Source: a virus
DNA length: 64,000 bases
Reading direction: 5' to 3' (one strand)
IMG/VR virus record: IMGVR_UViG_3300032285_003287
Coordinates: 1 to 64,000 of that record
Of the stretch, positions 18,404-64,000 are shown one piece after another. Below the pieces are notes generated by a model. That model saw only the letters and a list, made by a program, of their open reading frames with translations, made no database searches and was not told where the DNA came from. The position numbers and the translations under genes were made by a program. Each line of letters begins with the position of its first letter. Position 1 is the stretch's first letter.

Positions 18404-18420
18404 TTGTAGTATGATACTAT

Positions 18421-18496: not shown

Positions 18497-18508
18497 AATA
18501 TAAATTTC

Positions 18509-18581
18509 GCCCTTGTAGCTCAATGGTCAGAGCAGTCGGCTCATAACTGATTGGTTGGGGGTTCAAATCCCTCCGGGGGCA
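18509..18581 (+). tRNA. tRNA-CAT (Met or lysidine-type Ile2)
   Basis: GTCGG-ctCATaa-CTGAT; not initiator-like. Confidence 0.9.
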
Positions 18582-18585
18582 CTAT

Positions 18586-18661
18586 GCGTCGGTAGCTCAG
18601 TGGATAGAGCAGGAGTTTTCTAAACTCTTGGTCGCAGGTTCGATCCCTGCCCGATGCGCCA
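18586..18661 (+). tRNA. tRNA-Arg(TCT)
   Basis: GGAGT-ttTCTaa-ACTCT; GCCA end. Confidence 0.93.
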
Positions 18662-18666
18662 CTCTT

Positions 18667-18742
18667 GGAACCATAACTCAGCTGGTAGAGTATCGGACTT
18701 TTAATCCGTTAGTCGTGGGTTCGAGCCCCACTGGTTCCACCA
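18667..18742 (+). tRNA. tRNA-Lys(TTT)
   Basis: TCGGA-ctTTTaa-TCCGT; ACCA. Confidence 0.93.
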
Positions 18743-18743
18743 T

Positions 18744-18817
18744 GCGTCGTTAGCCAAGCGGTTAGGCGGAGGTCTGCAAAACCTCTTAGATTGGTTCGAC
18801 TCCAATACGGCGCTCCA
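18744..18817 (+). tRNA. tRNA-Cys(GCA)
   Basis: GAGGT-ctGCAaa-ACCTC; U73 + CCA. Confidence 0.93.
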
Positions 18818-45500: not shown

Positions 45501-46065
45501 TTATATACAACTTTTTGGGAAAAAAAATGTAACCTCAACAAGAACAGTAACTTTATATTTTGACAGTTATCGCCCATCACATGTTCATACTACCATTCCC
45601 TCGGTGGCTGGAAATGGTATCGTTAAAGTAATTAATGGTATTTACCAAACTCCGGCAACTGGTATATTTGATAGTGATGTTGATGCAAATGCCGGTATAC
45701 AGCAAAGTAAAATACTTGGGCTAACTGACTCATTATCATTACTTTCCAACTCGATTACCTCATTAAGTGGTACATTAACTGGTAACCTCGCTACGACTGG
45801 TTCTACGTTAGCTGGTAATATCACCACGTTAACAAGTAACCTCGCTACGACTGGTTCTACGTTAGCTGGTAATATCACCACGTTAACAAGTAATCTAGCT
45901 ACGACTGGTTCTACGTTAGCATCTTCGATTACTTCATTAAGTGGCACACTAACAGGAAACTATATTAGTGGAAATAATACTATAAATGGAATAATGACTA
46001 TATCACAAACTGAATATAATGCTATTACTCCAAATCCAAACGTTCTTTATATTATAACCTCATAA
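42595..46065 (+). CDS. long fibre/adhesin-like structural protein with internal repeats
   Basis: Gly/Thr/Ser-rich; repeated NPSG(Y/F)IT, DGSASFANG and NLATTGSTLA units. Confidence 0.75.
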   Translation: MPISLIKKNQLDPNVADLVGQYGSGFFLPVSVSGDLTGFIGKALTNITGIKTLNSLQGIVSIIGNSGVNISIDTGNNYIVIAYTGTPVPPNLVFTTGDQVVDGIKNFVGNIQFSGNQLSTGYDQSLNTTDNVTFSGVGLGVDPLYVQHPTAFGVISALANDGSAVFANGYASIDSLGGAVFANYSTTIGQDGLVSFAYGAAQVHTDGTFWSNGGQLITGVDLTPYALNANTGQFVTVDQTDAFYGVNNPSGYITGYNQSLNTTDNPTFFGLTTNGAQGVTIGKFAVYQSDLNGDLEFYNGLNSIAGISTSRLSAGVSKINPDGSASFANGAASIDSLGSASFASGAAQIHADGTFWSNGGQLITGFDLTPYALNANTGSFVTVDQTGAFYAATNPSGYITGVDLTPYALNADLTGIYATYAQLTGLSGYEASVTNLLATYAQLTGYSGFEATVDAAFATYSQLTGLSGYAAAVTNLATTGQTLSSRISSLSGTLTGNYVLKAQTGQFMPITQYGNFYLKTNPSGFVTTAQTGLLTGSFYPNNNPSGFITADQSLNTSDNVAFNLLNWGPTIWNSKMGRLQSDGSLAIGSGDWTVIGTSGTVYVNSLKLTPGDYWSYYNGPFTDTGSALYTPDGTSLYWNGVPVMTGSAGDSQSNITGSPTFKTIYLNSDNYDPTGTAYIGSFGGELALTAFRIGKDGVGPLFYSTDGANQLGIDSLQGIEFGMGDKYGPNPNYSRILFLTGGGASFNDGAALINSNGSASFANGTTQIHTDGSVWVSGNQLITGVDKLQGNPVSAQSPQNGQTLQWNGSAWVPGAVAAGGNGGGGKVYYFDFINQSGILPTGGLSSSGNFKNSLLGVDYSIGSGSGQSADLVPRNSDVLVMGFVTPSGNPGITNIPPGLWDFNIWANTNSNNATETAIKAVVNIYNPDTSTYRYLASSDYVYLYDGTTISQYLLNVTVPQTGIAINERIYIQLFGKKNVTSTRTVTLYFDSYRPSHVHTTIPSVAGNGIVKVINGIYQTPATGIFDSDVDANAGIQQSKILGLTDSLSLLSNSITSLSGTLTGNLATTGSTLAGNITTLTSNLATTGSTLAGNITTLTSNLATTGSTLASSITSLSGTLTGNYISGNNTINGIMTISQTEYNAITPNPNVLYIITS
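45784..45921 (+). repeat. 54-bp tandem repeat (NLATTGSTLAGNITTLTS)
   Basis: Near-identical units, about 2.5 copies, inside the fibre gene. Confidence 0.85.
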
Positions 46066-47147
46066 TGAATTTAAATCGTGCAACTCGTTTGTATGTTGGA
46101 TCTAAACTTTCATCTGCAATAGTTGAAACAGATTCGGTATCAAATTTTTATGCACATACTCCATTATTAATATCTAAAATAATTACTGGGAATAGGAGTT
46201 TAAATAAATATGGTGCCGACACATTAACAATAAGCAGCAATAATACATATACTGGCAAATCTTATATAAATAGCGGAACTTTAATATTGGCGTCTGATAG
46301 TAATACGTTAGGAAGTGGGCCTGTATATTTTTCTAGTGGTACAACTTTAAAAACAGCGACTGCAACTTCATTAAATAATAATATATATTTATATTCAGGA
46401 TCTTTAACTTTGGAAGTAACTAGTGGTAATCTTGGGATATATGGCAATCTATATGGATCTGGAATAATAACACAATCTTCAGCGTTAAGTGCTCCGGTTA
46501 GAAACGTAATATTTTCTGGAGATAATAGTAATTTTAGTGGAACATTTTTTGAGGACAATAATACGCAAAACCGTACGTCTTTTAATTCCCCTACCGCTGG
46601 AAGTGATAGCGCTATATGGCGATTTGATCGTAATATAGCCGGAGGTGCAGCAATTAATTTATTAAATGGTGGTATTATAAATTTTGGACAAATAACTGGT
46701 GGCGGTAGAACTAACGGTGGAGGACTAAGAATAAATACTACTGGAACAACAATAAAAATTGGAGCTTTAAATACCAACTCTACATTTGCCGGAGTTATTC
46801 AGCAGGGGAATATTAATACATCTGGCTCTATAATTAAAACTGGAAATGGTACTTTTACGTTGTCGAATTTAAATACGTATAATGGCAAGACAACAATAAC
46901 TGGTGGAGCGCTGTATATTGTAAATACGGGAAGTTTTCCTATCAATCCTTCTAATAAGTTATCTTCTGCGCTTTTGACATCAACAGATTCCATAACTTTC
47001 ACTTTCGGTACCGCACCGATAATTGGAGAATCATATAGAATACTTAGTGGAATTACGACAAATACTTATACGAATATAACATTTGTAAATGGCGGCGGAA
47101 GAACTGGTTCTTATAATTCATTAAACTCAACTTTAACTATTGCATAA
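46065..47147 (+). CDS. autotransporter-associated beta-strand repeat (PATR) protein
   Basis: LNKYGADTLTISSNNTYTGKSYINSGTL and IIKTGNGTFTLSNLNTYNGKTTITGGAL. Confidence 0.8.
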   Translation: MNLNRATRLYVGSKLSSAIVETDSVSNFYAHTPLLISKIITGNRSLNKYGADTLTISSNNTYTGKSYINSGTLILASDSNTLGSGPVYFSSGTTLKTATATSLNNNIYLYSGSLTLEVTSGNLGIYGNLYGSGIITQSSALSAPVRNVIFSGDNSNFSGTFFEDNNTQNRTSFNSPTAGSDSAIWRFDRNIAGGAAINLLNGGIINFGQITGGGRTNGGGLRINTTGTTIKIGALNTNSTFAGVIQQGNINTSGSIIKTGNGTFTLSNLNTYNGKTTITGGALYIVNTGSFPINPSNKLSSALLTSTDSITFTFGTAPIIGESYRILSGITTNTYTNITFVNGGGRTGSYNSLNSTLTIA

Positions 47148-49264: not shown

Positions 49265-51040
49265 ATGATTATTGTTGATAACTCTAACGCACCCGGATTT
49301 GATCTTAATAACCTAGAATACAGTCCCGGAAAGCAAGTTAATATATGCGCATTTGAGTTATTAAAAAACCAAGACAATAAGATTATAGTCAATAGAGAGT
49401 TAAAAAATATTGCTCCCGTTTCTAATAGCAGTGTAAATTTAAACATGGATAAATTCAAGTATTATGCCCGTTTTGATGGCATCGTTGTTCAAGCTAGAGT
49501 AAATGTTGATGAGGATAAATATCTAGCTGTTGCCTCTATAGACCAATTAAAGAATTATCTACCAAATAGCGTAGATCTAGATGTTAATAAGGATCTAATG
49601 GGCGTTGCTTTTGATGCCTTTGTCGTAAATCGTGGCAACAAGAATGGGCATATGATTGGAACCCAGAATGCACTAGCAATGGTTTCTAACTTTGTAAATA
49701 AACCGTTTAATATAGAGCATAATCGTAAGACGGTAATTGGTTTTTGTACCGGATATGGATTCAGTGAGTTTGGTACAAGTAATCCACTAACATTAGAGCA
49801 GGTCTCTGCAATGACCGAGCCATTTAACGTAGTTCTTTCTGGATATGTATGGAAGATTACAAACCCTGAGTTTGCAGAGGAGCTTGTTGAGAGTAGTGAC
49901 CCAAGTTCTGATAAATACCTATCTGTTAGCGCTAGCTGGGAGCTAGGCTTCAATGAATTTAACATTGCTGAGGGAAGCAAGAATCTAAATGAAGCAACAA
50001 TAATCGAAGATGAGGAAGAGATACTAAAGCATAAAGATGACCTAAAAGTTTTCGGCGGAAGCGGTATCTCTACAATCTCTGGAAAGCAAATTTTCTTAAA
50101 TTTACAAGGTAATATATTACCATTGGGAATTGGTTTTACCAATAATCCTGCTGCTGAAGTCAAGGGCGTAGTTATATCCTATGACAAACCAGAGGACACT
50201 AAAAACGAAAAAGAAGACAATGAAATTAATAAAAAAAGTGTCTCCTCCGAAATTAAAGATGTAAAAAAGATTATGCAAATCAATCAGATTGAAGATATCA
50301 CAGAAGACACAATGAAGGAAGCTTCTGCTAGTGCAGTTCGCGAGTTCATTTCCAACAAGATCACAGAACTAGCTAAAGACTGGACCGCAAAGGTTGAAGA
50401 GAAAGAGAATTCTCTAAAGGCCGCGCAGGAAGAACTAGCTGCTCTAAAAACTGACTTAGAGGCAATCAAGGCCGAGAGTGAGAAGGTAAGAGCTGAGTTT
50501 TCCGAGGTACAGGAGAACATCAGGAAGCAAGAGATTGAAGCAACGTTCCAGCGCCGTATGGCCCTAATCGATGAAGAGTTCGACCTAACTGATGCTGATC
50601 GCACTATTGTTGCCGAAGACCTTCAGGCTATCAATGACGAAGAGTCTTTCGACAAGTGGTATAATAAATTTGCAACCTTAGCCGAAGCCAAGAAGAAGAG
50701 TGCCAAAAAGGACTCCGAGCAGAAGACAGAGACTAAGGACGATACTGGTACATCCGAGACTTCTTATAGCAAGAAGCAGGACAATAAGGACGAAGAAAAG
50801 TCCGAGAAGAAAGACGACAAAAAAGAAGAGAAGGATGAAGAGGTAGAGGCCGATGAAGATGCAATGGCCGACAAGAAAGACAAAAAGGCCAACGCTTCTG
50901 AGAAGACAGTTGAAGAGGTTGTCAATAGTGTCGAGATCGAAGCAGCTCTAATTCCTAATGCTGCTGCACCTAATGAGCTTTCCCTAATGGAAAAAATTAG
51001 TGCCGCTTTCAATAAATCCAGTGTAAAGATAAAAAGATAA
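49265..51040 (+). CDS. prohead protease-scaffold fusion (probable starts at 49445 and 50273)
   Basis: NRGNKNGH, NIEHNRK, SASWELGF protease-like part; acidic coiled-coil C-terminal half; upstream of the capsid genes. Confidence 0.75.
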   Translation: MIIVDNSNAPGFDLNNLEYSPGKQVNICAFELLKNQDNKIIVNRELKNIAPVSNSSVNLNMDKFKYYARFDGIVVQARVNVDEDKYLAVASIDQLKNYLPNSVDLDVNKDLMGVAFDAFVVNRGNKNGHMIGTQNALAMVSNFVNKPFNIEHNRKTVIGFCTGYGFSEFGTSNPLTLEQVSAMTEPFNVVLSGYVWKITNPEFAEELVESSDPSSDKYLSVSASWELGFNEFNIAEGSKNLNEATIIEDEEEILKHKDDLKVFGGSGISTISGKQIFLNLQGNILPLGIGFTNNPAAEVKGVVISYDKPEDTKNEKEDNEINKKSVSSEIKDVKKIMQINQIEDITEDTMKEASASAVREFISNKITELAKDWTAKVEEKENSLKAAQEELAALKTDLEAIKAESEKVRAEFSEVQENIRKQEIEATFQRRMALIDEEFDLTDADRTIVAEDLQAINDEESFDKWYNKFATLAEAKKKSAKKDSEQKTETKDDTGTSETSYSKKQDNKDEEKSEKKDDKKEEKDEEVEADEDAMADKKDKKANASEKTVEEVVNSVEIEAALIPNAAAPNELSLMEKISAAFNKSSVKIKR

Positions 51041-51072
51041 TTATATCTAAAACAATTTAACTAAACAAACTT

Positions 51073-51609
51073 ATGCCTACATTAAGACCATACAATGACC
51101 ATAGCGAACATGAGGTTATCAATCTGTTCACTGTCACTGGCGATCTTCCTCGCGGAACTTTCGTCACGGCAGCTGATCAGGGAGTAAACCTTTCTGACGC
51201 TAACACAATCGGACAGCTTTCCCCATTCGGGAATACTGTTTCTGCCGTATTCAACGTTCCTTGGAACGCAGTTGCTGCTCCTTCGGGCACAGCAAAGGCT
51301 TCTGTTATCGGAGCAACTCTAAAGGATTTCCGCACATACGACGAGAATGGCGAGAAGCTACTTTTCCACCCACGCAAAGCGGCCGAAATGGACGTTATCA
51401 TTAGTGGGCAAGCAGTTCCTGTTCTAACACGTGGTATCGTTCTATACAGTGGTATCGTTGGTACTCCTGGTTATGGAAGTGGAGCAGCCGTTTCCGACGC
51501 CGGAGATGGCAGTATTAAGGTTGTGGCTTATAACCCAGCAACTTCAATCGGTAAGTTCTTAGGACCTAAGAACGCCGCTGGACACGCCCTTCTAAAGATC
51601 GAGCTATAA
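51073..51609 (+). CDS. capsid decoration/cement protein
   Basis: Between scaffold and MCP; SGQAVPVLTRG. Confidence 0.7.
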   Translation: MPTLRPYNDHSEHEVINLFTVTGDLPRGTFVTAADQGVNLSDANTIGQLSPFGNTVSAVFNVPWNAVAAPSGTAKASVIGATLKDFRTYDENGEKLLFHPRKAAEMDVIISGQAVPVLTRGIVLYSGIVGTPGYGSGAAVSDAGDGSIKVVAYNPATSIGKFLGPKNAAGHALLKIEL

Positions 51610-51633
51610 TCCTAACTAACACATTTTAAACAC

Positions 51634-52770
51634 ATGAAAATTCAATTCGAAAAAAACCCAGAGCAGATCGAGCTAATCAAGGCCCTTGCATCGGAAAACA
51701 AAACCGTTGCAGTACAGGCCCAAGAGGCATTCGCTGCATTCATTAGTGACGTAGTATTACAGGTTCTACTACAGGCTTCCACAGCCGGTTTAGTATACCG
51801 TGATATCGAGTTTGATGAGGACGATCAGCCCTCCATCCCGCTTGACCTATACTATGGACAGACAGAGGGAACAATTTCCGTCTGGAGTCAGACAGTCGGT
51901 GGTGGGCTACCAAGTAGTTTCGTTCAGGGAATGAACGAGATGAAGGTTAACACCTATCGTCTAGACAGTGCTATCTCCATGGAGAAGCGCTATGTTCGCC
52001 GCGCACGTCTTGACGTTGTCGCCGCTGGACTAGAGCGTATGGCAAACGAGCTTCTTGTAAAGCAAGAGCGTAACGCATGGGCAGTTGTTCTAAAGGCGCT
52101 AGCCGAAGCACAGACATTTGGTAAGGATCACGTTCAGCGTGTTCAGACAAATGGCGTGTTCCAGTTAGACGACATGAACAAGCTATGGACTCTAATCCGT
52201 AGAATCAATGCTGCTTACACAGGCGGTACTCCAAGTAACCTACAGTTCCGTGGTCTAACTGACATCTTCGTCAGTCCTGAGATCAAGGAGCAGATCCGTG
52301 GGTTTGCTTATCAGCCAATGAACACACGTGCTGGTTCCCTAAATGGAACAAGTAGTGCTGGTTATGCCGCAACATCCGTTGCTCTTCCTGACAGTGTTCG
52401 CGAGGAAATCTATCGCGGGGCAGGTACACAGGAGATCTTCGGTGTGACAATTCACGAGCTACTAGAACTAGGTGCTGGACGTAAGTACAATGACCTATTC
52501 GGAGCTTTCAGTAGTAAGTCGTATGCCGATTACGCTGGTGGACAGAGTGCAACTTTCACAAGTGCAACTGACGACCTAATCATCGGTGTTGACTCCACAC
52601 GTAACGCTTTCCTACGCCCAGTCGCCATCCAGAGCGAGAGCCGCGGACAGGTCAAGGTTCTTCCTGATGACCAGTTCCTAGCTCGTAGCCAGAAGGTCGG
52701 TTTCTACAGTTATGTAGAAGAGGGCCGCGTAGTAACTGACGCTCGTGCGGTTGTTGGACTACTAGTCTAA
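51634..52770 (+). CDS. major capsid protein
   Basis: 378 aa, strongly biased codons, canonical position, strong terminator after it. Confidence 0.8.
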   Translation: MKIQFEKNPEQIELIKALASENKTVAVQAQEAFAAFISDVVLQVLLQASTAGLVYRDIEFDEDDQPSIPLDLYYGQTEGTISVWSQTVGGGLPSSFVQGMNEMKVNTYRLDSAISMEKRYVRRARLDVVAAGLERMANELLVKQERNAWAVVLKALAEAQTFGKDHVQRVQTNGVFQLDDMNKLWTLIRRINAAYTGGTPSNLQFRGLTDIFVSPEIKEQIRGFAYQPMNTRAGSLNGTSSAGYAATSVALPDSVREEIYRGAGTQEIFGVTIHELLELGAGRKYNDLFGAFSSKSYADYAGGQSATFTSATDDLIIGVDSTRNAFLRPVAIQSESRGQVKVLPDDQFLARSQKVGFYSYVEEGRVVTDARAVVGLLV

Positions 52771-52792
52771 TACTGACAAAAAGTTAATCAAG

Positions 52793-52825
52793 AAACCCCT
52801 CTGGAAACAGAGGGGTTTTTCTTTT
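52793..52825 (+). terminator. intrinsic terminator
   Basis: aaacccctctg-GAAA-cagaggggttt followed by a T-tract. Confidence 0.9.
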
Positions 52826-52878
52826 GTATATTTAATTAAATAAATTTTAATTATACAGCACCTACGTTTATAATAAGT

Positions 52879-53256
52879 ATGGCAACTAAAAAGAAGAAAA
52901 ATGTAACTTTAAACGCGTCTGTTCAGGTTGACGGCAAGGCCCAGTCTGGTAATGTTCCAGAGAGTTTATATGGGTCGCTGGATCAGATTCTAGGAGAAAA
53001 CATCTCGGTATACAAAGCCGGTACGGTAGATGAATATCGCGCCCAAATTGCTGAAATGAATCAAACTGACTTACAAACACATGCCCTAAAGATTGGCCTG
53101 ATTCCAATTGAGGACAGAAGAATTTTGGTTGGCAGACTAGTGCAGGAGTTTGAGCGCTGGCATTCAAAGATGCAGCCGCAGGGCAATGTTCGCGGCGCAA
53201 AGAAGATAGAAGATATTGACGAAAAAGCCAGAAAGATATTAAGAGAAGGCGCGTAA
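52879..53256 (+). CDS. hypothetical virion-module protein
   Basis: Position after MCP. Confidence 0.75.
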   Translation: MATKKKKNVTLNASVQVDGKAQSGNVPESLYGSLDQILGENISVYKAGTVDEYRAQIAEMNQTDLQTHALKIGLIPIEDRRILVGRLVQEFERWHSKMQPQGNVRGAKKIEDIDEKARKILREGA

Positions 53257-53283
53257 TACCACATAATCTGTGTAAATTATTAT

Positions 53284-53826
53284 GTGAGCGACTTCAATAA
53301 TTTCGTAAATAATATCTATAACGAACTAGACCAGCCATCAGATTATTCTCCAGCGAGAATAAGTGGCTGGTTTTTAGATTCTTCTAATGTTGGAAACCTT
53401 AATAACCTAATCGGCACATCGTTTGTTCCGAGCGGTTTTTATAACGATTCTGGCGCTCTTACGGGCTATGGTATAGTGCCAGCTATAAGCGGAAACGAGC
53501 TTGGTATATTTAAATTGCTTTTTGAATATAATTATTATTATAGATTATCAAGATATACAGCAACCAGTATAATGACAGTAGGTCAGGACTGGATAAATCT
53601 TCAAGAAGGTGACAGCAAAATTACTAGAATTAACTACAATGAAGTTAGTAAAAATTTACGTGGGCTAGCCAAGGACGCAAAAGAAACGCTAGATAAGGCC
53701 GTTAAGATGTATCTAAAATACGGCGCAATACCACAACAGGTAGTAGGTGACGATACTATAGGTATTAGTAACTATATTTCAACAAGCGAGGATAGGGGTA
53801 CAATTAAAGATGACTTCTTATACTAA
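53284..53826 (+). CDS. putative head-tail adaptor
   Basis: Position; LQEGDSKITR; GTGTAA-N8-GTG. Confidence 0.6.
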   Translation: MSDFNNFVNNIYNELDQPSDYSPARISGWFLDSSNVGNLNNLIGTSFVPSGFYNDSGALTGYGIVPAISGNELGIFKLLFEYNYYYRLSRYTATSIMTVGQDWINLQEGDSKITRINYNEVSKNLRGLAKDAKETLDKAVKMYLKYGAIPQQVVGDDTIGISNYISTSEDRGTIKDDFLY

Positions 53827-54260
53827 TGAACTATTTTAATAATGCGCAAAAGTCTGCCTATAGTAAACCATTCTATGATTTACATGATACGTTTTCGCGT
53901 AAAATAATAGTATATAAACACCCTAATGCAACATTAATATCTAGTCAACCAGATTATAATTTTCTATACTCTCAGCAAACTGAGGCGCAAGTCGAATATA
54001 CTCCTGTAAGCGGTGTTTTTCCAGCAACAATTAAATGGGAGCATGCATATAAAATCAATGATGCAAGAGATATTCGTCCAACAATTTTTGGTAATTATTG
54101 CCGTTTAAAGGTAAAGGCCGATGCGCTTGCTTTTATAAGTGGAGCGCGTGGACAAAGAATAGAAGTAGATGGACGTACTGTTAACTGGATAGGTAGTAGC
54201 GAAGTTCACGGACTGTTTACTGGAGACTTTTATCACATATACCTAAGGGAGGGAGAATAA
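53826..54260 (+). CDS. putative head closure protein
   Basis: Position; beta-rich, RIEVDGR. Confidence 0.55.
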   Translation: MNYFNNAQKSAYSKPFYDLHDTFSRKIIVYKHPNATLISSQPDYNFLYSQQTEAQVEYTPVSGVFPATIKWEHAYKINDARDIRPTIFGNYCRLKVKADALAFISGARGQRIEVDGRTVNWIGSSEVHGLFTGDFYHIYLREGE

Positions 54261-54261
54261 T

Positions 54262-54837
54262 ATGGGAATGAGTATGGAGAAAATTAGGCTTGAAATATTA
54301 AATAATCCGGGTCTAGAAGCAGAAGCAAGAAAGCTGGCTAAACAGATACTGCAAGAAAATAAACAGGAACTAATTAACGAGTTTAATGCTCATCCTGTTA
54401 CTATGGAAATTGAAGCCGGACCTAGTGCCTCTAATAGGTCAGGGACTCTAGGTAGCAAGGGTAATCTATTTTCTTTTATTGGTTTTAGCGAAGGAGACTC
54501 TCCGCTAGAGCCAGTTAGGGCACTTCTTGATAAGATACAGCTCGCTAGTACTAGAGCCATAAAGTCTGGGGCAGTTGTAGAATTTAAAGTTAACCTTCCC
54601 AGTAAGAGTGAGTTTGAAAGTGCTAGTAAAATGCCTTGGGAGAGCGGTCGTAGTTGGCTATATGATATAGAGCGCGCAATATCTGGACTTGGCAACTATT
54701 TATATGGTAGATTCCAGAACTCTAGATCTGGAACTGGAGTTCAGTTAGAGAAAAGTGTTACCAGTCAAACATTTACTCCTGTTAAATATTTTGGCACTAT
54801 GCTAGATAAATTCGTTAATAAATTAAAAGGAATATAA
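54262..54837 (+). CDS. putative neck/tail completion protein
   Basis: Position in the neck module. Confidence 0.55.
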   Translation: MGMSMEKIRLEILNNPGLEAEARKLAKQILQENKQELINEFNAHPVTMEIEAGPSASNRSGTLGSKGNLFSFIGFSEGDSPLEPVRALLDKIQLASTRAIKSGAVVEFKVNLPSKSEFESASKMPWESGRSWLYDIERAISGLGNYLYGRFQNSRSGTGVQLEKSVTSQTFTPVKYFGTMLDKFVNKLKGI

Positions 54838-54838
54838 T

Positions 54839-55693
54839 ATGAAACCATCTTACATGACAAATTTGATGTCTAGTTTTTATTTATGGCTAGACCATGAGCT
54901 TGCTAGCGTTGGGCAGGCTTTTACTGTAACTAGCGGCAAGCTATATAAATCAGAAGATAGAAATTATGGGCAGCATAACGTTTATAGCTCGCCTTTTAGA
55001 CAGTGGGTTTCTGATAGCAGTATAAGCGGAGCTTTTATTCCTAGTGAGATATATATAAATGGAATAAGTGTTGATAGGTCTAGTGGCATAACTATTAATT
55101 ATAATAAGGGAGAGGTATTACTGGATAAAGTACTTGGAGAGCCCAATAGTGTTACTGCCAGATATACTAAAAAAGATTTTAATATATATTATACAGACGA
55201 AAGGGAGGAGAACTTATTATTTGAAAGCGCCCATACATTGACGCCCAAGTTCAATCAGGTTTCTGGGGGCCTAAATGGCGATGATCAACCATTTCCTTGT
55301 ATTTTTATAAAGAATACTTCCTATGAGAATAAGCCATACGCAATAGGTGGGCAAGATAAAACGTTAACTACTATAAGGTGTATTATTCTTTCTGATAATA
55401 TGTATTTATTAGATGGGGCAATTGCTGTTATGGCCGATACTGCAAGAAAGGTATTTCCCGTAGTTCCTCCGTCTGAGTTGCCATATGATTATTATGGCGA
55501 CATTAAGTCTGGGCAGGAATATAGATATTCACAATTAACTACCCAGCAAAATACAAATCTAGTATACATAGATAGGGTAACTGTATCAAGATTAGATGAA
55601 ATAAGAAATAAACATATCAATCTTAAGGTTGTGGCTGCTTTAGTGGATTTTGAGCTATGGCAAGCCAGAAACCCAAGAGCATATGCTGTATAA
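54839..55693 (+). CDS. putative tail terminator protein
   Basis: PFPCIFIKN; immediately before the tail tube gene. Confidence 0.5.
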   Translation: MKPSYMTNLMSSFYLWLDHELASVGQAFTVTSGKLYKSEDRNYGQHNVYSSPFRQWVSDSSISGAFIPSEIYINGISVDRSSGITINYNKGEVLLDKVLGEPNSVTARYTKKDFNIYYTDEREENLLFESAHTLTPKFNQVSGGLNGDDQPFPCIFIKNTSYENKPYAIGGQDKTLTTIRCIILSDNMYLLDGAIAVMADTARKVFPVVPPSELPYDYYGDIKSGQEYRYSQLTTQQNTNLVYIDRVTVSRLDEIRNKHINLKVVAALVDFELWQARNPRAYAV

Positions 55694-55770
55694 TATATTT
55701 CCCAAAAATTCTCTTTTAAAGTGTCTTGAGGGAGCGCGTTAATGTAATTAAATAGAGAACTCCTAAAATT

Positions 55771-56862
55771 ATGTCTAGAAATCGTATCATTTATAATGTT
55801 TTAGCACTGTACGCCGGAAAGAATAACGCCATTAGTGGTAGTCATTCCAATGCTGGCGATATCAAGCAATTAACTCGCGTTCAGTCCTTTGACGAGGATT
55901 TCGCTAGAAATTTAACTAACGTTAACCAGTATGGAAACCTAGCTGCTATCGATCGTATCGAGATTACAGCTCCTACAGTTAAATCTAGTTTCTCTTACTA
56001 TATTACAGATGGAGGTAATGAAAACTTTGTTGGATTGAATGTTGCTACCGGATCTCAGTCGCTAGTATCGTGCGTTTCTGGGTATCTAACCAAAGCAACT
56101 GATCAGAAAAACTATTTCCTGCTAATTTCCGATGAGGGCCATGATGCCGCTGGATATACAAACGCCAGAACTGGAGTTATTGGAATTGGGAATGGTTTCT
56201 TAACGTCGTATGATGTTGAGGCGGCAGTTGGACAGATTCCTAAGGCGACCGTACAGCTGGAAGCCCTAAATGTTAGAGTTTACTCGAATGCAGACGGCAC
56301 AAATGATGTTCCTGCAGTTAACCCAATTAACGGTCTACCTGTTACTGGAGTTCCATTCTTAATCCCAGCTGGACATACAAATGACAGTAATACACAGATT
56401 TCCGCGTTACAGCCCGGAGATATTACTCTAGATATCAATGGTCTAATTGGAGTTAATAAGGATGACTTAAAGATACAGAACTTTAAGCTAAATATCCCAT
56501 TAGCCCGTCAGCCTATCATGCGCCTTGGCAACAAGTTTGCATTCACACGTGAAATTCAGTGGCCAGTTAAAACAACCTTCTCGATCGATGCCGAGCTTGG
56601 AGATATTCAAGATGGCAATCTAGCAGACGTTCTTTGCCAGACTGGAACATATGACATTAATGTAGGCTTCCGTAAGCCAGACTGTTCTGGACATGGACAG
56701 CAGGCATTAGTATATAACTTCCGTGGTGCTAAGCTTCTGAATCAGAAGGTTAATACAAGCCTAGGACAGAACGCTAAGTTTACAGCAGAATTCGAGGCCC
56801 AGATTGGTGCGCCTGAAGATCTTGCTCACGGAGTATTTATCTCTGGAACATACGCAGCTTAA
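55771..56862 (+). CDS. major tail (tube) protein
   Basis: Beta-rich, followed by a terminator, upstream of chaperones and TMP. Confidence 0.7.
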   Translation: MSRNRIIYNVLALYAGKNNAISGSHSNAGDIKQLTRVQSFDEDFARNLTNVNQYGNLAAIDRIEITAPTVKSSFSYYITDGGNENFVGLNVATGSQSLVSCVSGYLTKATDQKNYFLLISDEGHDAAGYTNARTGVIGIGNGFLTSYDVEAAVGQIPKATVQLEALNVRVYSNADGTNDVPAVNPINGLPVTGVPFLIPAGHTNDSNTQISALQPGDITLDINGLIGVNKDDLKIQNFKLNIPLARQPIMRLGNKFAFTREIQWPVKTTFSIDAELGDIQDGNLADVLCQTGTYDINVGFRKPDCSGHGQQALVYNFRGAKLLNQKVNTSLGQNAKFTAEFEAQIGAPEDLAHGVFISGTYAA

Positions 56863-56886
56863 TTAAATATTAATTAATAAATAAAG

Positions 56887-56917
56887 AAAACGGGTGCCTA
56901 ACGGTGCCCGTTTTTTT
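56887..56917 (+). terminator. intrinsic terminator
   Basis: aaaacgggtgcc-taac-ggtgcccgttttttt. Confidence 0.85.
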
Positions 56918-56969
56918 GTATAAGTGTAATAGTGTATGGTATAATAAGGTAAGCAAAGGAACAAGGTTA

Positions 56970-57203
56970 ATGAAAATAGAAATTAATAATTTCGTTGTTG
57001 GCGCCGTGTCAAACGAAGTAAAAAAACTTTATCTGTCTGTGCTATATTCCGCTGAGGACCTAGCTAGACAGGGAAAAATTAGTGATGAGGATTTTCAGTT
57101 CTTGCGTAAGCGCATTTTAGACCATGGCAATAATGCTATAAGAAATCTTGAGTTACAATTAGATAATTTTGATTTTGCTTTTAAAAATACACAAAATAAA
57201 TAA
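56970..57203 (+). CDS. hypothetical protein
   Basis: MKIEINN...LRKRILDHGNNAIR. Confidence 0.7.
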   Translation: MKIEINNFVVGAVSNEVKKLYLSVLYSAEDLARQGKISDEDFQFLRKRILDHGNNAIRNLELQLDNFDFAFKNTQNK

Positions 57204-57208
57204 TATAT

Positions 57209-58018
57209 ATGACGACCACCAATAACGCAACAAAGAAATGGTATTACGAATTTAGCTCTACGGACAAGGAGACTAGTAAGGAGAGCAAATATGCTATATT
57301 GAAGCCAAACCGCAGAATCCGCGAGGATGGAGAGCTTTTCTTTGCTAGTGAGACATCAAGATTTGCAAAAGCGGGAGTTCTGCCCAAGGCCGCATGGAAT
57401 ACAATTCTATCTAATGGTGGCGGCAGTATTAGTGAGAGCGAGCGCGAAAGTTATGGCAAGCTCCTATTGAATTATAGAGATAGAAGCTTTGAGTTACAGG
57501 CTATACTTGTAAAGAGCGAGGGTAATAGAACCGAACAAGAGAACAAGAGGCTTGACGAGATCATTATTGAACTTGAGGCGATTAAAAAAGATATTCAGAG
57601 TTTTGAGGCAGAGCAAATCAATATTTTTGAAAATACTGCGGAAGCAAAGTCCAGAAATCGTACGATTTTATGGTGGGTTCTACAGTTAGCATATAAGCAT
57701 GAGGACGATAAGTACGTACCATTTTTTGATGGTGAAACTTTTAACGAGAAGTTGGATAACTATGATATAATTGAGGAGACAGGTAACGTAGAGTTGTCAG
57801 ATGTTATCAAGCGTTTTACGTATCTAACTACGCTATGGTTCTTGGGTAGGATTGAGACTACCGAAGACTTTGAAGCTTTTGATAAAGACTATTTAAAGCC
57901 AACTGATTCCGCGAAAGAGTCGGTAGAGGAGTCGGTAAAAACTGACGTTACTATTACTAGTCCAGAGGTAAAAGATGAGCCAAAGGACGAGCCAAAACAG
58001 GAACCGAAAGCTGAATAG
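57209..58018 (+). CDS. putative tail assembly chaperone
   Basis: Acidic helical protein between tail tube and TMP. Confidence 0.55.
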   Translation: MTTTNNATKKWYYEFSSTDKETSKESKYAILKPNRRIREDGELFFASETSRFAKAGVLPKAAWNTILSNGGGSISESERESYGKLLLNYRDRSFELQAILVKSEGNRTEQENKRLDEIIIELEAIKKDIQSFEAEQINIFENTAEAKSRNRTILWWVLQLAYKHEDDKYVPFFDGETFNEKLDNYDIIEETGNVELSDVIKRFTYLTTLWFLGRIETTEDFEAFDKDYLKPTDSAKESVEESVKTDVTITSPEVKDEPKDEPKQEPKAE

Positions 58019-58024
58019 TAATGT

Positions 58025-59059
58025 GTGGAAAATAACCCGGCACAATATGGCGGAATATATAGCGATATAGCTAGGGGGTTTTCTGAAAAAATAATTGCTG
58101 GAAGGGAGTATTTTTTTAAGCACCCAACCCAAGCGGAGCATTTCGAGGTATTTAGCCGTTATAATTTCATTTTAAATGATGCAAAAAAACGTGGTCTACC
58201 TACCGAAGACGAGAAGATAAAAGATGCTATAAAAAATGGTTGGTGGCTAGCTGACAAGGAGAACCGTTTCCTGCAGCTACGCGAGTCTATAAAAAATTTA
58301 AAAAAAACAAAAGATAATCTATTGCTACCCTCGCAAAAAGACCAAATACAGTCACAAATAGATAGAAATAATTTTATATTAGTAACATTTATTAAAGAGC
58401 GCAATGAGGTTGTTGGATATACTGCAGAAAAGTATGCCAACGAGCGCCTATACGACGAAACACTGCTGTCTTTAACCTTTAAAAATAGGGAGATGACCGA
58501 AAGGGTGTTCAGTGACCCAGATGAGTATTATTATTTATCTGATGACGCCGTGGAAAAGGTAAGAGATGCTTTCCATGGTAATGCCGACCTGTTCGCTGGT
58601 AATATGATTAAATATGTTGCTGCATCGACATTTTTTCAGAATATGTTGTATGTAACTCAAGAATGTGACGCGTTTCATTTTTGGGGGACGCCAGCAAGCA
58701 AATGTACTAAATATCAGATTGATCTTTTGATTAATGGTAAGATGTATAAACAGGCAGTTAAAAGCGAGGCAGAAAGGGGTAAGAGTATTCCAGATGAGGT
58801 AATGTCTGATCCTGTTAAATTTGTTACTTGGTATGAGGCCAGAAGCGCAAATCTGGAAATGGAAAGCTCGTCTTCCGGTTCAAGCGTGGGGAGTTCTTCT
58901 ACTGCCGTATCTAGTTTTGTTGGGGCAACATCCGAAGACTTAAAAAAAATGGGCGTTAAGGTTCAAAAAATAAAAGGGAAGAGCCTATTGGAAATGGCCG
59001 AGGAGAGCGGCGGTGTACTTGAAAAACACCAATATCTCAATGCAAGAGATGGTAATTAA
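58025..59059 (+). CDS. putative tail assembly chaperone 2
   Basis: Immediately before TMP. Confidence 0.55.
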   Translation: MENNPAQYGGIYSDIARGFSEKIIAGREYFFKHPTQAEHFEVFSRYNFILNDAKKRGLPTEDEKIKDAIKNGWWLADKENRFLQLRESIKNLKKTKDNLLLPSQKDQIQSQIDRNNFILVTFIKERNEVVGYTAEKYANERLYDETLLSLTFKNREMTERVFSDPDEYYYLSDDAVEKVRDAFHGNADLFAGNMIKYVAASTFFQNMLYVTQECDAFHFWGTPASKCTKYQIDLLINGKMYKQAVKSEAERGKSIPDEVMSDPVKFVTWYEARSANLEMESSSSGSSVGSSSTAVSSFVGATSEDLKKMGVKVQKIKGKSLLEMAEESGGVLEKHQYLNARDGN

Positions 59060-59100: not shown

Positions 59101-62100
59101 ATGGCACTAGATACCACACTAAAAATTTCATTAGATTCTAGACAAGCTGAACAGCAAATAGATAGGCTTACTAGTAAAAACTATGGAATAAAGCTAAATA
59201 TTGATTCGCAGCCACTCGGTCGTATAACTGGGCAGCTTAGTGAGTTTAATAAGTCTCTGGATGCTGCAAATGCGCGTGTAGTGGCTTTCGGTGCAAGTGC
59301 TGGGGCGATAGCGATTCTAGAGAAATCTTTTCGTGCGCTTATAGATTCCGCAATAGAGGTACAAAAATCACTAAAGGACATTCAGGTTGTCATGGATTCC
59401 TCAGATGCGGCTATTAATAAGTTTGGTAAAAGCCTATTTGATGTAGCTAAGAATACCGGTCAAAGTTTTGCGGTTGTCGCAGAGGCAGCAACCGAGTTAT
59501 CTCGTCAGGGATTAACAATGGAAGAAACCCTCAAGAGAACTAATGAGGCTCTAATATTATCTAGATTAAGCGGACTAGGCGCAGCAGAGAGCGTTAGGAC
59601 GTTAACTGCAACTGTTAACTCTTTTTCCGCGCAAGCCGTAACTGCAAGCGAGGTTATTAATAAGTTTGCAAATGTTGATGCAGCGTTTGCGGTAAGTTCA
59701 AAAGATTTGGCCGAGGGTATAAGCAGAGTTGGCGCTAGTGCCGCGCAGTCTGGTGTTTCTATTGATGAGCTTATAGCATTGATAACTTCTGCGCAACAGG
59801 TGACCGCGAGAGGCGGCGCCGTAATAGGAAACTCTTTTAAGACAATATTTACGCGCTTGGAGCGTGGAAAAACTCAAGACCTATTAGAAAGCCTAGGAGT
59901 GAGCACGAAAGATTCCGAAGGAAAACTGAAGACCAGTATAGAAATGCTGAAAGACTTGGCTAGAGTATATGGAACATTAAATTCTGGAAAGCAGGCTGAA
60001 GTTGCGGAAAAAGTGGGCGGAGTATTCCAAATTAACATTTTAAAAGCTGCATTGGGAGACTTGGGTAAGCAATATTCTATATATGATAATGCATTAAAAA
60101 TTTCTGCAAGTTCTACCGATGAGGCTATACAGCGTAATGAGAAATTAAATGAAACTTATGCTGCGCAAATAAATAGATTACAGCAGAGCGCCACGCAGTT
60201 AGCTGCTTCGGCTGGCAAGCAAGTTTTTGGCCCAAGCATGGATAGAATACTGGGCGCTGGAAATGGTATTTTAGATAGTTTAAATAATGTTGATAGTTCT
60301 AGTATTGGAGCAAAACTTGGAAAGGGAATTCTAGATGGTATCGGTCAAATACTTGCTGGACCGGGACTAGTAATGATTGGAGGGGTCGTAATTAAGTTGC
60401 TTGGGGATTTCTCCAAGTTCGCAAGTGGTAGTGTTAAGGAACTTTTGGGGTTGAATGGGGCAAGTAAGGAACAGGCTGCTATTCAAGCTAGTATTACAAA
60501 ACTTTTAGAAAAAAATCCTAGTTTATTAGCGCAAATAAATAGCGAAGCAAAAACACAAAATGACCAAGCTAAAATACTTCTAGATTTTTATACAAAGCAG
60601 ACGGCCCAGATGGAGTTGCAGTCCAAACTAACTTCGCAAATTGCGGCTCAGCTTTATACCGGCGGCGTTCGTATGGGGTCAGAAGGAGTACCAGTAAAGA
60701 AAAAAGCAGAAGGATACATTCCCGAGTTCGCAAGTGAAGAGGCGCAAGCAAAAATGCTTGGTGCAAAAAGCCCACGCGCAATGTGGAGTAGCGGAACTAT
60801 TGGTGGACAAAAATTTATTAAGAATAGCGAAGAAGATGAGATCGTTGGATATGGTCGCAATGGCGATTCGGCAGTTATACCTAGATATAGTGCTGGATAT
60901 ATACCTAATTTTGCTGGACTAGCTTTAACTAGTGCTGGGCCAGGTTTGTTTACGGTAAATGGGCCAAAACAAGGGGGACGTGGTAATTTTACTACTTCTC
61001 CAATGGGTGCTGGTGCTATATTAAAATCTTATAGAAAAGATTTATCTGCAGATCAAAAAAGTATTTTGGAGTCAGAAATTACTAGAAAAGAAATTCAAAC
61101 CTCTTCTGCTGATGATTTATTAACTATCGGGAAAGGTGCAAATAAAAAAGTTGATTTAAATAATCTAGATTTATCTAGTGTGGATCCCAGTATTAGTAGT
61201 AAATTTGGAATATTTTTCCCCAATTCTGGTGGGTCGGAACTACCCATAAGACAGAGAGCTAGCGAGATTACCGCTTTGAATGGTTTGCCGGTTAAGGGTG
61301 CCGTAGTAACAAAATTAAAAACTGCGCCTATATTCCCTTTAAATGAAAAAGAAAGTGATTTTGATAATATTTTAGAGAAGCAATTTTTGCCCCCATTTAA
61401 ATATTTATCCGAACAAATACTTAATACATTTAAACCTGGATCTAAGCTTTCAGCTGAGCCTGATGTAAATAGCGCGTTCACATCTTCTGTAAGGGGTAGT
61501 ATTTTTGAGAAGGCCGTGGGCGCAGCAACAGCTAAAACTACAGAGATATTTAAAGAGTCAAACGAATCAGACCAAGACCCTTTTGATTATGCACCTTTAA
61601 GCAATTATAAATTTTTAGCCTCAAAGCTGGGGGTTTCTACCGCAGCTGAAGCGAAGCTTTCGGTTAGCGCCGCGCATAACTTGCCAGCTAAAATTTTAGC
61701 TTATGATTCAGGCGCTTTATCTAAATTAAAAGATAAAATTTATCAAAAAATTAATAGTGAAAAAAATATCCGTACAGCCGCTTCTGGTTATATTCCAAAC
61801 TTTGCCGATGCGCTACATGAATCGATAGCCCGTGAAATTGGTGCCGGTGCGCCAGCGGATGAAATTTATGTTAAAAAATATGGACAACTAGCAAGCGAAA
61901 ATAATCCAGATGGTTATGGAGTATTTAACAAGCGCGACGAAGGTAGCGTGTCTAGAGAAATGCGCGCAATGCGTAAAAGGGGATATGCTCGTGGTTATAT
62001 ACCTAATTTTGCAGAGGATAGTTCTGGAACCGGATCTGGGGGCGTAGTATCTGGCGGCGCAACGGCACTAGTAGATCTAGCGTTTGCAATGTCTATATTT

Positions 62101-64000
62101 AAAAATAGTTCAAATGAGGCAAGACAAGCAACTCTAGAAAAATCAATAGCATTAAAAGAAGAAAAAATAGCTCAAATTCAGTCACAAGAAGCAATAATAA
62201 AAACAAGACAGGCATTTATAGATGCAAATAAAGATATTCTAAATATGTCTAACGCGGTAATGAATGCAAGTAGAGATATTGGCTTTGCAAATCAGAAAAT
62301 ACAGGAGCTTAGTAAAAGATCGTTCAGTGAAAAATTTACAGATACAAAAATATCCGTAGAAAATAGCCGGGCCTATCAAGGTGCAAGTAAGTTCTTATCC
62401 GGTAAGGGTGGTACCGCGTTAACTTTCGCGCCAATCGTCGCAGGACAAATTTCAGAATTAATACCACAGAATTCGCAAGGCGGCAGGGGCGCGGCGCAAG
62501 CTGTTTCGTCTATTGGCAATATTGCATCGTATGCGGGGGCAGGTGGAATGTTGGGCGGACCAGTTGGAGCAGGGGTTGGTTTGGCTGCTGGAGCGATATT
62601 GGAAGTGCCTAAAGTAATAGAGGCATTTACCACTAAGCTTCCGGAGCTACAGGAAAAATCAGATAAAGATAGAAATAAATACAATGAATTAGACGCTAGG
62701 TCAAAAAATTATTTAAATGCATCTTCTGCTTATGACGAAGCATTAAAGAGTGGTAACTCTAACCAACAAGAGTTGAAAAAACTATCTCAAGCGAAGCAGG
62801 CGTCTTTTCAGCAGTATTCCCCTGAGGAACAAATGAGGTTATTAAAAGCTAGAAAACAGGGCGGTAGTGAGGCTGAATATGAAGAGGTGGGCAACATGAC
62901 TAGAGAGAGTGCAGAACAGGTATCTTCTTCTGATAGGGCATTGAAGCAAAGAACATTTCTAGAAAAAGACAAAAGAGAAATTACATTTGGATCTGAAGCG
63001 GCAAAAGATACTGCTGGGGCATTAATTTCCCAAATTACATCTGGAAAAACAGGCGCTCAGGGACTGGAAGCTTTAAAAAATATTAATATAAAAGATTTAA
63101 TTAGCAGCGAAGATAAAAATGAAAACCAGTATGCTAGAGCAGAGAGATTTGGTGGAGTTCTAACTAAAGCCATGGGCGGAGAAAATATTTCGGAACAGGA
63201 TAGCGAGTTTGTAAAAAATATAACAAATAAACTGGCTACTGGAAATCCGGAAGCGGCAGCTGCAACCATGCAGCAATTAGCGGAAAAAATATTAAAACTA
63301 AGGGAAGCTGCGTTTGAAGGCGCGAAGGCAGATGAGGAAGCTGCAGCGCTAGCTACTCAGGCAGCAGAAAAAAGAAAGCAGGAGATGGAGGCTATACGTC
63401 AGAATGCTAGTGCAATAGAAAAACAAATTGGATTAATACAACAGGCGACAGCGGCGTACGAGCAGAAGGCCGAGTTTAACATGGAACGCGGGCAAAATAA
63501 AAGAAACTTTTCCACTGAAATGACACAAACACGCAGGTCTAATATGGAAGAAATAGTTTCAAGTATAACTGGAAATACCATGTTGGGCGCGCGCGAACAG
63601 GGTGCAAATAAAATTTCTACTATAAACGAAAACGCTGCAAATAAAGAGGCAGATATTATTGATAAGATGAAGCTTGATGTCGCTAAAGGCGTGAGCAAGC
63701 AGTATATGAATGTTTACGATGTAGATAAAAAGAAGTCTTCTGGTGCCCCAACGGACATTCAGTCACAGGGTGATAATATCAAACCATTAATGAAGAATTC
63801 CTTTAGTGGCATAGAAAGCTATACGGACGCGCCTAGAGATGTTAGGCAGGGTTATATAGAATCTGTTGGTGCAAATGAAATTAATAGACAATCAAAAACA
63901 ATTGCCGGAGTTCAGGGTGCTTATGAACAATATGTTAAAAGTGACGGAAAGCAGGGCGATCAAGATAAGTTCAGGGCTGCACTAGCGGAGCACTTCGGCA
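59101..64000 (+). CDS. tail tape measure protein (TP901-like core), truncated by the window end
   Basis: ATG 59101; LFDVAKNTGQSF..VAEAATELSRQG...ALILSRLSG, KFANVDAAFAVSSKDLAEG, GGAVIGNSFKTIFTR; missing from the ORF track, consistent with having no stop in the window. Confidence 0.92.
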   Translation, partial: MALDTTLKISLDSRQAEQQIDRLTSKNYGIKLNIDSQPLGRITGQLSEFNKSLDAANARVVAFGASAGAIAILEKSFRALIDSAIEVQKSLKDIQVVMDSSDAAINKFGKSLFDVAKNTGQSFAVVAEAATELSRQGLTMEETLKRTNEALILSRLSGLGAAESVRTLTATVNSFSAQAVTASEVINKFANVDAAFAVSSKDLAEGISRVGASAAQSGVSIDELIALITSAQQVTARGGAVIGNSFKTIFTRLERGKTQDLLESLGVSTKDSEGKLKTSIEMLKDLARVYGTLNSGKQAEVAEKVGGVFQINILKAALGDLGKQYSIYDNALKISASSTDEAIQRNEKLNETYAAQINRLQQSATQLAASAGKQVFGPSMDRILGAGNGILDSLNNVDSSSIGAKLGKGILDGIGQILAGPGLVMIGGVVIKLLGDFSKFASGSVKELLGLNGASKEQAAIQASITKLLEKNPSLLAQINSEAKTQNDQAKILLDFYTKQTAQMELQSKLTSQIAAQLYTGGVRMGSEGVPVKKKAEGYIPEFASEEAQAKMLGAKSPRAMWSSGTIGGQKFIKNSEEDEIVGYGRNGDSAVIPRYSAGYIPNFAGLALTSAGPGLFTVNGPKQGGRGNFTTSPMGAGAILKSYRKDLSADQKSILESEITRKEIQTSSADDLLTIGKGANKKVDLNNLDLSSVDPSISSKFGIFFPNSGGSELPIRQRASEITALNGLPVKGAVVTKLKTAPIFPLNEKESDFDNILEKQFLPPFKYLSEQILNTFKPGSKLSAEPDVNSAFTSSVRGSIFEKAVGAATAKTTEIFKESNESDQDPFDYAPLSNYKFLASKLGVSTAAEAKLSVSAAHNLPAKILAYDSGALSKLKDKIYQKINSEKNIRTAASGYIPNFADALHESIAREIGAGAPADEIYVKKYGQLASENNPDGYGVFNKRDEGSVSREMRAMRKRGYARGYIPNFAEDSSGTGSGGVVSGGATALVDLAFAMSIFKNSSNEARQATLEKSIALKEEKIAQIQSQEAIIKTRQAFIDANKDILNMSNAVMNASRDIGFANQKIQELSKRSFSEKFTDTKISVENSRAYQGASKFLSGKGGTALTFAPIVAGQISELIPQNSQGGRGAAQAVSSIGNIASYAGAGGMLGGPVGAGVGLAAGAILEVPKVIEAFTTKLPELQEKSDKDRNKYNELDARSKNYLNASSAYDEALKSGNSNQQELKKLSQAKQASFQQYSPEEQMRLLKARKQGGSEAEYEEVGNMTRESAEQVSSSDRALKQRTFLEKDKREITFGSEAAKDTAGALISQITSGKTGAQGLEALKNINIKDLISSEDKNENQYARAERFGGVLTKAMGGENISEQDSEFVKNITNKLATGNPEAAAATMQQLAEKILKLREAAFEGAKADEEAAALATQAAEKRKQEMEAIRQNASAIEKQIGLIQQATAAYEQKAEFNMERGQNKRNFSTEMTQTRRSNMEEIVSSITGNTMLGAREQGANKISTINENAANKEADIIDKMKLDVAKGVSKQYMNVYDVDKKKSSGAPTDIQSQGDNIKPLMKNSFSGIESYTDAPRDVRQGYIESVGANEINRQSKTIAGVQGAYEQYVKSDGKQGDQDKFRAALAEHFG

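Follow-up and report, generated by a model that had tools for sequence, protein, structure and literature searches.

The tape measure protein (TMP) of a large uncultured aquatic phage carries a block of folded modules fenced by copies of a nine-residue motif, and these copies are the exact borders at which the central domain of the block is exchanged and extra modules are gained or lost among related phages. The phage is represented by an IMG/VR contig (record IMGVR_UViG_3300032285_003287; 81,717 bp, about 53% complete). Positions 1 to 64,000 of this record form the window, the stretch of DNA that was analyzed, and window and record share one numbering. We read the block as a part of the TMP that would deliver an enzyme, with the motif being recognized by a partner, a reading that we consider evenly balanced between right and wrong.

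The TMP open reading frame (ORF) lies on the + strand at 59101-65460 of the record, encodes 2119 amino acids (aa) (P0002; L002:101-6457) and overruns the end of the window. Its product is assigned as a TP901-type TMP because PF10145 (PhageMin_Tail) matches aa 116-307 with 107.1 bits against a cut-off of 33.2 and because 13 PHROG TMP families match it, the best at 1.4e-55. In addition to scoring above the profile cut-off, the protein is very long and largely helical, has Gly-rich hydrophobic segments and is encoded in the tail gene block, as is typical of the TP901 family. The features of the ORF to which we refer below, all on the + strand, are:

59101..64000, + strand: the part of the TMP ORF within the window; the full ORF matches PF10145 and PHROG TMP families
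59446..60021, + strand: TP901-type TMP core, aa 116-307 (Pfam, PF10145)
60337..60423, + strand: hydrophobic Gly-rich segment 1, aa 413-441 (Kyte-Doolittle windows >1.4), upstream of the module block
60706..60732, + strand: motif copy 1, AEGYIPEFA, aa 536-544 (translation)
60733..60888, + strand: module m1, aa 545-596, predicted as a small helix plus beta-meander (predicted local distance difference test, pLDDT, 81-92), with up to 92% identity to relatives
60889..60915, + strand: motif copy 2, SAGYIPNFA, aa 597-605, the upstream edge of the exchanged cassette
60916..61089, + strand: N-terminal part of the insert, aa 606-663, poorly conserved
61090..61779, + strand: conserved enzyme-like domain, aa 664-893, predicted with a beta-rich N-subdomain and a helical C-subdomain
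61507-61509, 61585-61587, 61648-61650, 61654-61656 and 61690-61692, + strand: codons of the conserved residues E803, D829, E850, K852 and K864 of that domain, in this order
61780..61806, + strand: motif copy 3, ASGYIPNFA, aa 894-902, the downstream edge of the exchanged cassette
61807..61986, + strand: module m3, aa 903-962, predicted as a small alpha/beta fold (pLDDT 80-91), with up to 87% identity to relatives
61987..62013, + strand: motif copy 4, ARGYIPNFA, aa 963-971 (translation)
62041..62100, + strand: hydrophobic segment 2, aa 981-1000, ten residues past motif 4
62545..62619, + strand: hydrophobic Gly-rich segment 3, aa 1149-1173, with a weak C19orf12-like glycine-zipper match

An initial annotation, made from the sequence alone, had placed four GYIPNFA-type repeats at 60706, 60889, 61780 and 61987, and translation gives exactly these. 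A six-frame scan of the 81,717-bp record with the pattern G[YFHW][IVLM]P.[FY] returned the same four matches in the TMP frame. The sole further match was a looser GHLPIF in a non-coding frame, so that no proper copy of the motif lies outside the TMP in any frame of the record. In 75 related loci, 283 copies were found inside the TMP ORF and 0 outside it in ~1.6 million six-frame residues. Because the motif is restricted to the TMP both in the record and across these loci, its repetition is not due to chance. When aa 530-985 were used as the query of a protein search, 347 matches were obtained; all 120 matches listed are giant TMPs of 1300-3200 aa, each with 3-11 copies of G-[YF]-[IV]-P-N-F. 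An IMG/VR pattern scan added at least 598 motif stretches, 387 of them confirmed. A large family of TMPs from uncultured phages is thus defined by the motif, which is near-invariant within it, even between highly divergent phages sampled in the sea and in fresh water. No match to aa 530-985 was found by tblastn among the cultured phages of INPHARED, and a literature search for the motif strings returned no paper containing them. IMG/VR pattern scans with two single window-protein queries yielded no DNA of close relatives, and a scan of genome contigs with alignment A1 gave no match. Relatives of m3 with its motifs were seen on three contigs (L079, L080 and L081) binned to two Flavobacteriaceae and one Verrucomicrobiales metagenome-assembled genome (MAG), which is only a weak hint of the host because phage contigs are often mis-binned.

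The 524 strict-pattern copies that were tabulated have the core A-x-G-[YF]-[IV]-P-N-F-A, often preceded by basic residues. G, P, N and F are invariant among them, and conservation falls off steeply on either flank. Third codon positions within the motif are free (the Gly codon is GGT in 53 copies, GGA in 41, GGG in 14 and GGC in 10). Selection therefore acts on the peptide and not on the DNA, and the motif is not a DNA-level recombination site.

The TMPs of this family share a plan in which the core is followed by the module block and then by a long helical ruler. In the TMP studied here the block reads motif, m1, motif, enzyme-like domain, motif, m3, motif, and it sits between the hydrophobic segments at aa 413-441 and aa 981-1000. 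The typical family layout is the same: motif, ~52-66 aa (m1), motif, 200-430 aa (the insert), motif, ~58-68 aa (m3), motif. m1 and m3 are the best-conserved parts, and m3 together with both flanking motifs was recognized in 175 of 197 family TMPs. An m1-like module was also seen in P0132, a 327-aa protein on a 39-kb contig, between the degenerate motifs GHIPDA and GGNMPS and followed by the conserved C-terminal end of the TMP; possible explanations are that a split or a frameshift in a TMP gave rise to P0132, or that m1 is an ancestral element of the TMP C terminus.

An AlphaFold2 model of the block (aa 530-985, built with 63 homologous segments; mean pLDDT 77) predicts m1, the core of the insert and m3 with pLDDT values of ~72-97, mostly 80-97. 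Values under 50 are seen at motifs 2-4 and immediately ahead of motif 1. At motif 1, which stands at the start of the model, only model residues 1-7 are below 50, and the m1 helix begins at the last two residues of the motif. The insert between motifs 2 and 3 comprises 288 aa (606-893). The N-terminal part of the insert (aa 606-663) starts with ~30 residues of pLDDT <50, and the remainder is modelled as two moderately confident helices with block means of 55-74. A second model, of the domain only (aa 664-895), reached a mean pLDDT of 89.4 and a predicted template modelling score (pTM) of 0.83, in agreement with the initial annotation, which had described the insert as globular. The prediction for the motif is thus an exposed linker, itself disordered, that borders separately and confidently folded modules. 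That the most conserved peptide of the block is predicted to be such a linker is what would be seen for a short linear motif read by a partner.

Comparison of relatives revealed that the insert has moved independently of its surroundings. The three TMPs closest overall (P0014, P0008 and P0010) are 81-88% identical to the TMP in the core, 90-92% in m1, 85-86% in m3 and 52-75% over most of the C-terminal ruler, but only 10-24% in the insert. For P0014 the values are 88% (core), 90% (m1), 10-20% (insert), 86% (m3) and 55-75% (C-terminal part). The reverse is seen in P0004, P0005 and P0003, which share the insert version at 53-60% identity, yet only 18-34% downstream (21-34% to the TMP for P0004 and P0005). 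This incongruence between insert and flanks points to recombination and not to mere fast divergence. In alignment A4, made of six proteins, invariant columns are closely spaced as far as F604 in motif 2 and set in again at A894 and G896 in motif 3; the insert between them has nine scattered invariant positions, including G799, F802, E803, K852 and K864. Gain or loss of a module follows the same borders: P0016 and P0019, which are 69% identical, differ by one 181-aa indel that runs from the interior of a motif to the same point in the next copy, that is, by one module plus one motif. The initial annotation had proposed that relatives be compared for swaps at GYIPNFA, with an insert invariant among them as evidence against its reading, and had suspected recombination joints; the insert is exchanged, its breaks coinciding exactly with motifs 2 and 3, and what does not hold is a recombination site at the DNA level.

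Exchange and indel borders that fall exactly at the motifs, in peptides predicted to be disordered, are also what would be seen if the motif were only a tolerated junction. Illegitimate joins would then survive only in a flexible linker, and the repeat would mark history and not function. A linker of this kind would not hold G, P, N and F invariant while synonymous sites vary, and we regard this explanation as very improbable.

The inserts of the family fall into several groups by BLAST clustering. When compared by hhalign, the four main groups were joined with a probability of 95-98%, the aligned part being 110-170 residues at the C-terminal end. A hidden Markov model (HMM) of the C-terminal part of the insert then recognized the domain in 181 of 197 TMPs, five of which have two copies; switching off the HMMER bias filter was needed for detection. 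The slot between motifs 2 and 3 therefore does not hold interchangeable unrelated effectors, as had been supposed, but one divergent domain family. Overall identity among the 189 domain copies is only 15-20%, and a few positions are near-invariant: G799 (189 of 189), F802 (188), E803 (E in 167, D in 19), D829 (181), D/E850 and K852 (each in 186 of the 186 copies aligned there) and K864 (K in 175, Q in 9). Residues that are invariant at such low overall identity indicate strong selection on E...D...(D/E)xK. Steps of 26 and 21 residues separate E803 from D829 and D829 from E850. The initial annotation had picked out the strings VRGSIFEKAVG (aa 797-807), QDPFDY (825-830) and AAEAKLS (848-854), all of which are present, as a PD-(D/E)xK nuclease signature. 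The order of the residues and their near-invariance bear this out; a match to a nuclease fold or family was not obtained. Judged from the alignment and the model, the central domain appears to be an enzyme-like domain with a nuclease-like signature and a fold that matches nothing solved.

Other TMPs of the family contain further motif-bounded modules, each in a small subset: (i) a GNAT module (PF00583, 29.8 bits against a cut-off of 20.7), (ii) modules of 153 aa and 172 aa with an invariant GPAGxGK[ST] (Walker-A), (iii) a module of 420-484 aa with G.PG.GK and GAFSP.TkGH, a HIGH-type nucleotidyltransferase motif, for which Pfam support is weak and sub-threshold, (iv) a 140-aa module with DWDGT (DxDGT motif) and (v) a 194-aa module with HEasH (HExxH), in three relatives only. 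These accessory modules look enzymatic, GNAT by its profile and the others by their consensus motifs. Accessory modules with G..FE or D..E.K patterns were considered as homologues of the central domain and rejected (hhalign probability <=7%).

We propose the following sequence of events. The central domain would be an enzyme with an acidic/lysine, probably metal-dependent site (E803, D829, E850, K852 and K864) and would have a phosphoester, for instance nucleic acid, as its substrate. TMPs are the first to be ejected, insert into the envelope and form a channel that lines the route of the DNA. For this reason, and by analogy with gp96 of the Thermus phage P23-45 (see below), the block would arrive at the inner membrane or in the cytoplasm together with the DNA or before it, and would act there at an early stage, on nucleic acid of the host or of competitors or on a defence system. 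The motif would be the recognition peptide for a partner, and cleavage at the motif, if it occurs, would free the modules once the tail is assembled or once the TMP is ejected.

Several points weigh against this proposal, the first of which concern the domain itself. The PD-(D/E)xK core is alpha-beta-beta-beta-alpha-beta, with D opening strand 2 and (D/E)xK on strand 3. This core is not evident in the domain model, in which E803 is part of a helix, D829 neighbours just one bridge residue, E850-K852 belong to a strand of four residues, and the longer strands are in the N-terminal half. No Pfam family matched any of 67 domain members, an Mrr_cat HMM had no match in the virus record, the ESM Atlas gave no usable match to the domain, and no stand-alone homologue of 107-406 aa was returned by a profile search. 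Other points concern delivery and release. The TMP has no HExxH and no peptidase Pfam match, and no protease family was recognized among 27 neighbouring proteins of the record (~53% complete). The single enzyme-like domain means that this TMP is not "polyvalent", as it had been called; relatives do carry several enzyme-like modules. A ruler must stay intact through tail assembly. Finally, folded 230-aa domains of several TMP copies would not fit the lumen of the tail tube, and such bulky domains would therefore have to be unfolded or staggered there.

Further searches with the domain gave similar results. Nothing meaningful was found when its model was compared with the PDB (Foldseek, VIA wide) and BFVD, and a PDB profile search gave only lectins at E 0.1. 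An exhaustive single-sequence search returned six representatives only, all of them TMPs, and a search for relatives among shorter proteins returned mostly contig-end fragments. Since the confident model and Pfam match nothing, and the order of the motif residues alone suggests the activity, we treat nuclease activity as a hypothesis and not as a finding; it is possible but somewhat doubtful.

The central domain could instead be no enzyme at all, but a structural or binding module for contact with the membrane, peptidoglycan, DNA or tail tip, in which folding or binding depends on a metal or salt-bridge site made by the invariant lysine and acidic side chains. That it matches no known enzyme fold or family fits such a role. 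So does its occurrence inside TMPs only, as expected of a part of the tail machine, and its near-universal presence in the family, like that of a core structural part. We nevertheless consider this alternative unlikely for three reasons: (i) invariant G, F, E, D, D/E, K and K/Q at 15-20% identity are typical of a catalytic site, (ii) wholesale swaps of divergent versions between close relatives are typical of conflict-driven effectors and not of fitted structural parts, and (iii) the accessory modules in equivalent slots are enzyme-like.

There are at least two possibilities for how a partner would read the motif. We slightly favor, as a tentative view, that it is a processing (cleavage) site, because one copy flanks every module and modules come and go as units of module plus motif. 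A short site that recurs between independently folding units, as in processed polyproteins, is present here, and self-cleavage at the invariant Asn of the motif is conceivable. A site for a general virion protease was ruled out, as the motif is absent from the other proteins of the record and from the flanks of the 75 loci.

The second possibility is that the motif is never cut and serves for docking or packing: it would bind a conserved phage partner, hold the bulky modules in register while the tail is assembled and leave them tethered to the TMP channel after ejection. Candidates for the partner are the lumen of the tube, other TMP chains and the proteins of two genes encoded just upstream of the TMP:

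57209..58018, + strand: conserved gene upstream of the TMP, 269 aa, kept in 61 of 75 related loci
58025..59059, + strand: conserved gene directly upstream of the TMP, 344 aa, kept in 66 of 75 related loci

Docking accords with the conservation of these genes beside the TMP, and the near-invariance of the motif over very divergent phages fits a co-inherited phage partner. The lack of a recognized protease near the TMP is in its favor, and the hydrophobic segments that bracket the block could anchor it at the membrane. A tethered enzyme has a precedent on the TMP of P23-45 (PMC10770324). On the other hand, a function in docking would not require a copy at each module border, nor copies that come and go together with each module as one unit. 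We regard docking as a serious but rather less probable account than processing.

A stronger form of the processing reading is that the TMP is a true polyprotein. Once the tail is assembled, or upon ejection, it would be cut at every motif, by an unrecognized phage or host protease or by Asn self-cleavage, and would release a nucleic-acid-cleaving enzyme of new fold together with, in relatives, the kinase-, nucleotidyltransferase-, phosphatase- and acetyltransferase-like modules. We consider this strong form unlikely.

TMPs are usually viewed as rulers and channel formers, and to our knowledge only isolated enzyme-carrying TMPs are known. Some TMPs carry cell-wall hydrolases: that of mycobacteriophage TM4 has an Rpf-like motif, and a lytic transglycosylase and an M23 peptidase occur in those of staphylococcal and other siphophages. 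As in these proteins, whose domains act during entry, non-ruler functional domains are inserted in the TMP described here; in contrast to them, no peptidoglycan-hydrolase family was detected, the conserved residues resemble a phosphoesterase-type site, and a dedicated motif stands between the modules. Border motifs are also known from polymorphic toxins, namely VENN in CdiA and PxxxxDPxGL in Rhs, the latter being a self-cleavage site as well. They resemble the TMP motif in being short, strongly conserved peptides at the swap point of variable cassettes. However, their sequences are unrelated and they belong to other machinery, whereas the motif described here occurs many times per protein and flanks both conserved and variable modules.

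A close parallel is gp96 of P23-45 (PMC10770324, Chaban et al. 2024), in which a virion RNA polymerase is fused to the TMP; it has been proposed that this enzyme enters along with the TMP and works on nucleic acid at the pore of the TMP. Both proteins are giant TMPs with hydrophobic membrane-type segments and a folded enzyme or enzyme-like domain aboard. In gp96 the enzyme is N-terminal and single, with no fencing repeat and no evidence of cassette exchange; here the block is internal and motif-fenced, its domain has an unmatched fold, and relatives differ in how many modules they carry. Polyvalent proteins, found in phages and conjugative elements, are large virion-delivered chains of enzyme domains, including GNAT and nucleases; they are shuffled as mosaics and, once delivered, are believed to be split into units by processing (Iyer et al. 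2017, PMC5512222). That paper does not contain the word "tape" and describes no repeated spacer motif, and it ascribes processing to an embedded zincin-like metallopeptidase (MPTase). The TMP described here, by comparison, lacks HExxH and has one enzyme-like domain and two small modules. In the contractile injection system (CIS) of Streptomyces lividans, Sle1 is described as a TMP-like scaffold packaged in a tail-like particle with a variable, exchangeable functional domain (PMC13277306, Nagakubo et al. 2026). Sle1 differs in belonging to a cellular CIS and not to a phage, in having its functional domain at the C terminus and in that the abstract reports no fencing motif. In the literature searched we did not find a fencing repeat, cassette exchange at such a repeat or a core domain of unmatched fold in a TMP; enzyme-bearing TMPs are already known.

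The genes around the TMP were also examined. The products of 57209-58018 and 58025-59059 have no Pfam, PHROG or PDB match, PDB profile searches included; by position only, they are possible tail assembly chaperones. The two genes are in one frame, with a TAG stop at 58016-58018, two more codons and then a GTG start, and this in-frame pairing is also found in L005 and not in L004. Read-through of the TAG might yield a fused chaperone-like product, instead of the usual G/GT frameshift. The head and tail genes around the TMP (window 49265-59059, record 65468-76029) are almost all without PHROG or Pfam match, and the structural module is therefore very divergent. The genes at 54839-59059 are well conserved and syntenic in related IMG/VR loci, with up to 73% identity. 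Downstream of the TMP, record positions 76144-81049 (L002:17144-18250; L003:13255-17046) encode proteins of 369 and 1264 aa with RCC1-type beta-propeller repeats, one of which also has an MBG domain; these two are probably fibre or receptor-binding proteins.

Elsewhere in the window, nine tRNA genes lie at 9878-18817 (Ser, two Leu, Pro, Ile-TAT, Met, Arg-TCT, Lys and Cys), five of them tightly clustered at 18421-18817. The G+C content around them (the 10-30 kb region) is 0.43-0.51, compared with 0.31-0.40 in the remaining window. A 315-aa protein encoded at 37669-38616 has a weak N-terminal C2H2-type zinc finger and an ERCC4 nuclease domain (PF02732, E 3e-10), and just downstream of it is a weakly terminase-like ORF at 38607-40508 (Terminase_6N, sub-threshold). 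Upstream of the head genes and away from the tail block are a 1156-aa protein (42595-46065) with a "Phage tail tip domain" (PF24243) at its end and a 360-aa protein (46065-47147) with PATR (autotransporter passenger-type) repeats. A pooled Pfam scan of 27 ORFs (32999-59059 and record 65468-76029), which assigns families to the region and not to individual ORFs, gave PhoH (E 5e-41), calcineurin-like phosphoesterase, phage lysozyme, sigma-70 region 2 and a Nudix-type zinc ribbon.

In a widespread family of uncultured aquatic phages, then, the TMP is a scaffold for an enzyme-like domain and has slots for optional enzyme-like modules, and the motif is a simple sequence handle by which such TMPs can be found in metagenomes. 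By way of the tail, an exchangeable set of enzymes may enter the host. Should the modules indeed be delivered, early phage effectors would have a new route into the cell, the central domain would be a new enzyme fold for characterization, and the motif would mark a slot for loading foreign proteins into phage tails. If the polyprotein reading is true, the block would be a natural plug-in kit of early effectors, swapped between phages at the motif.

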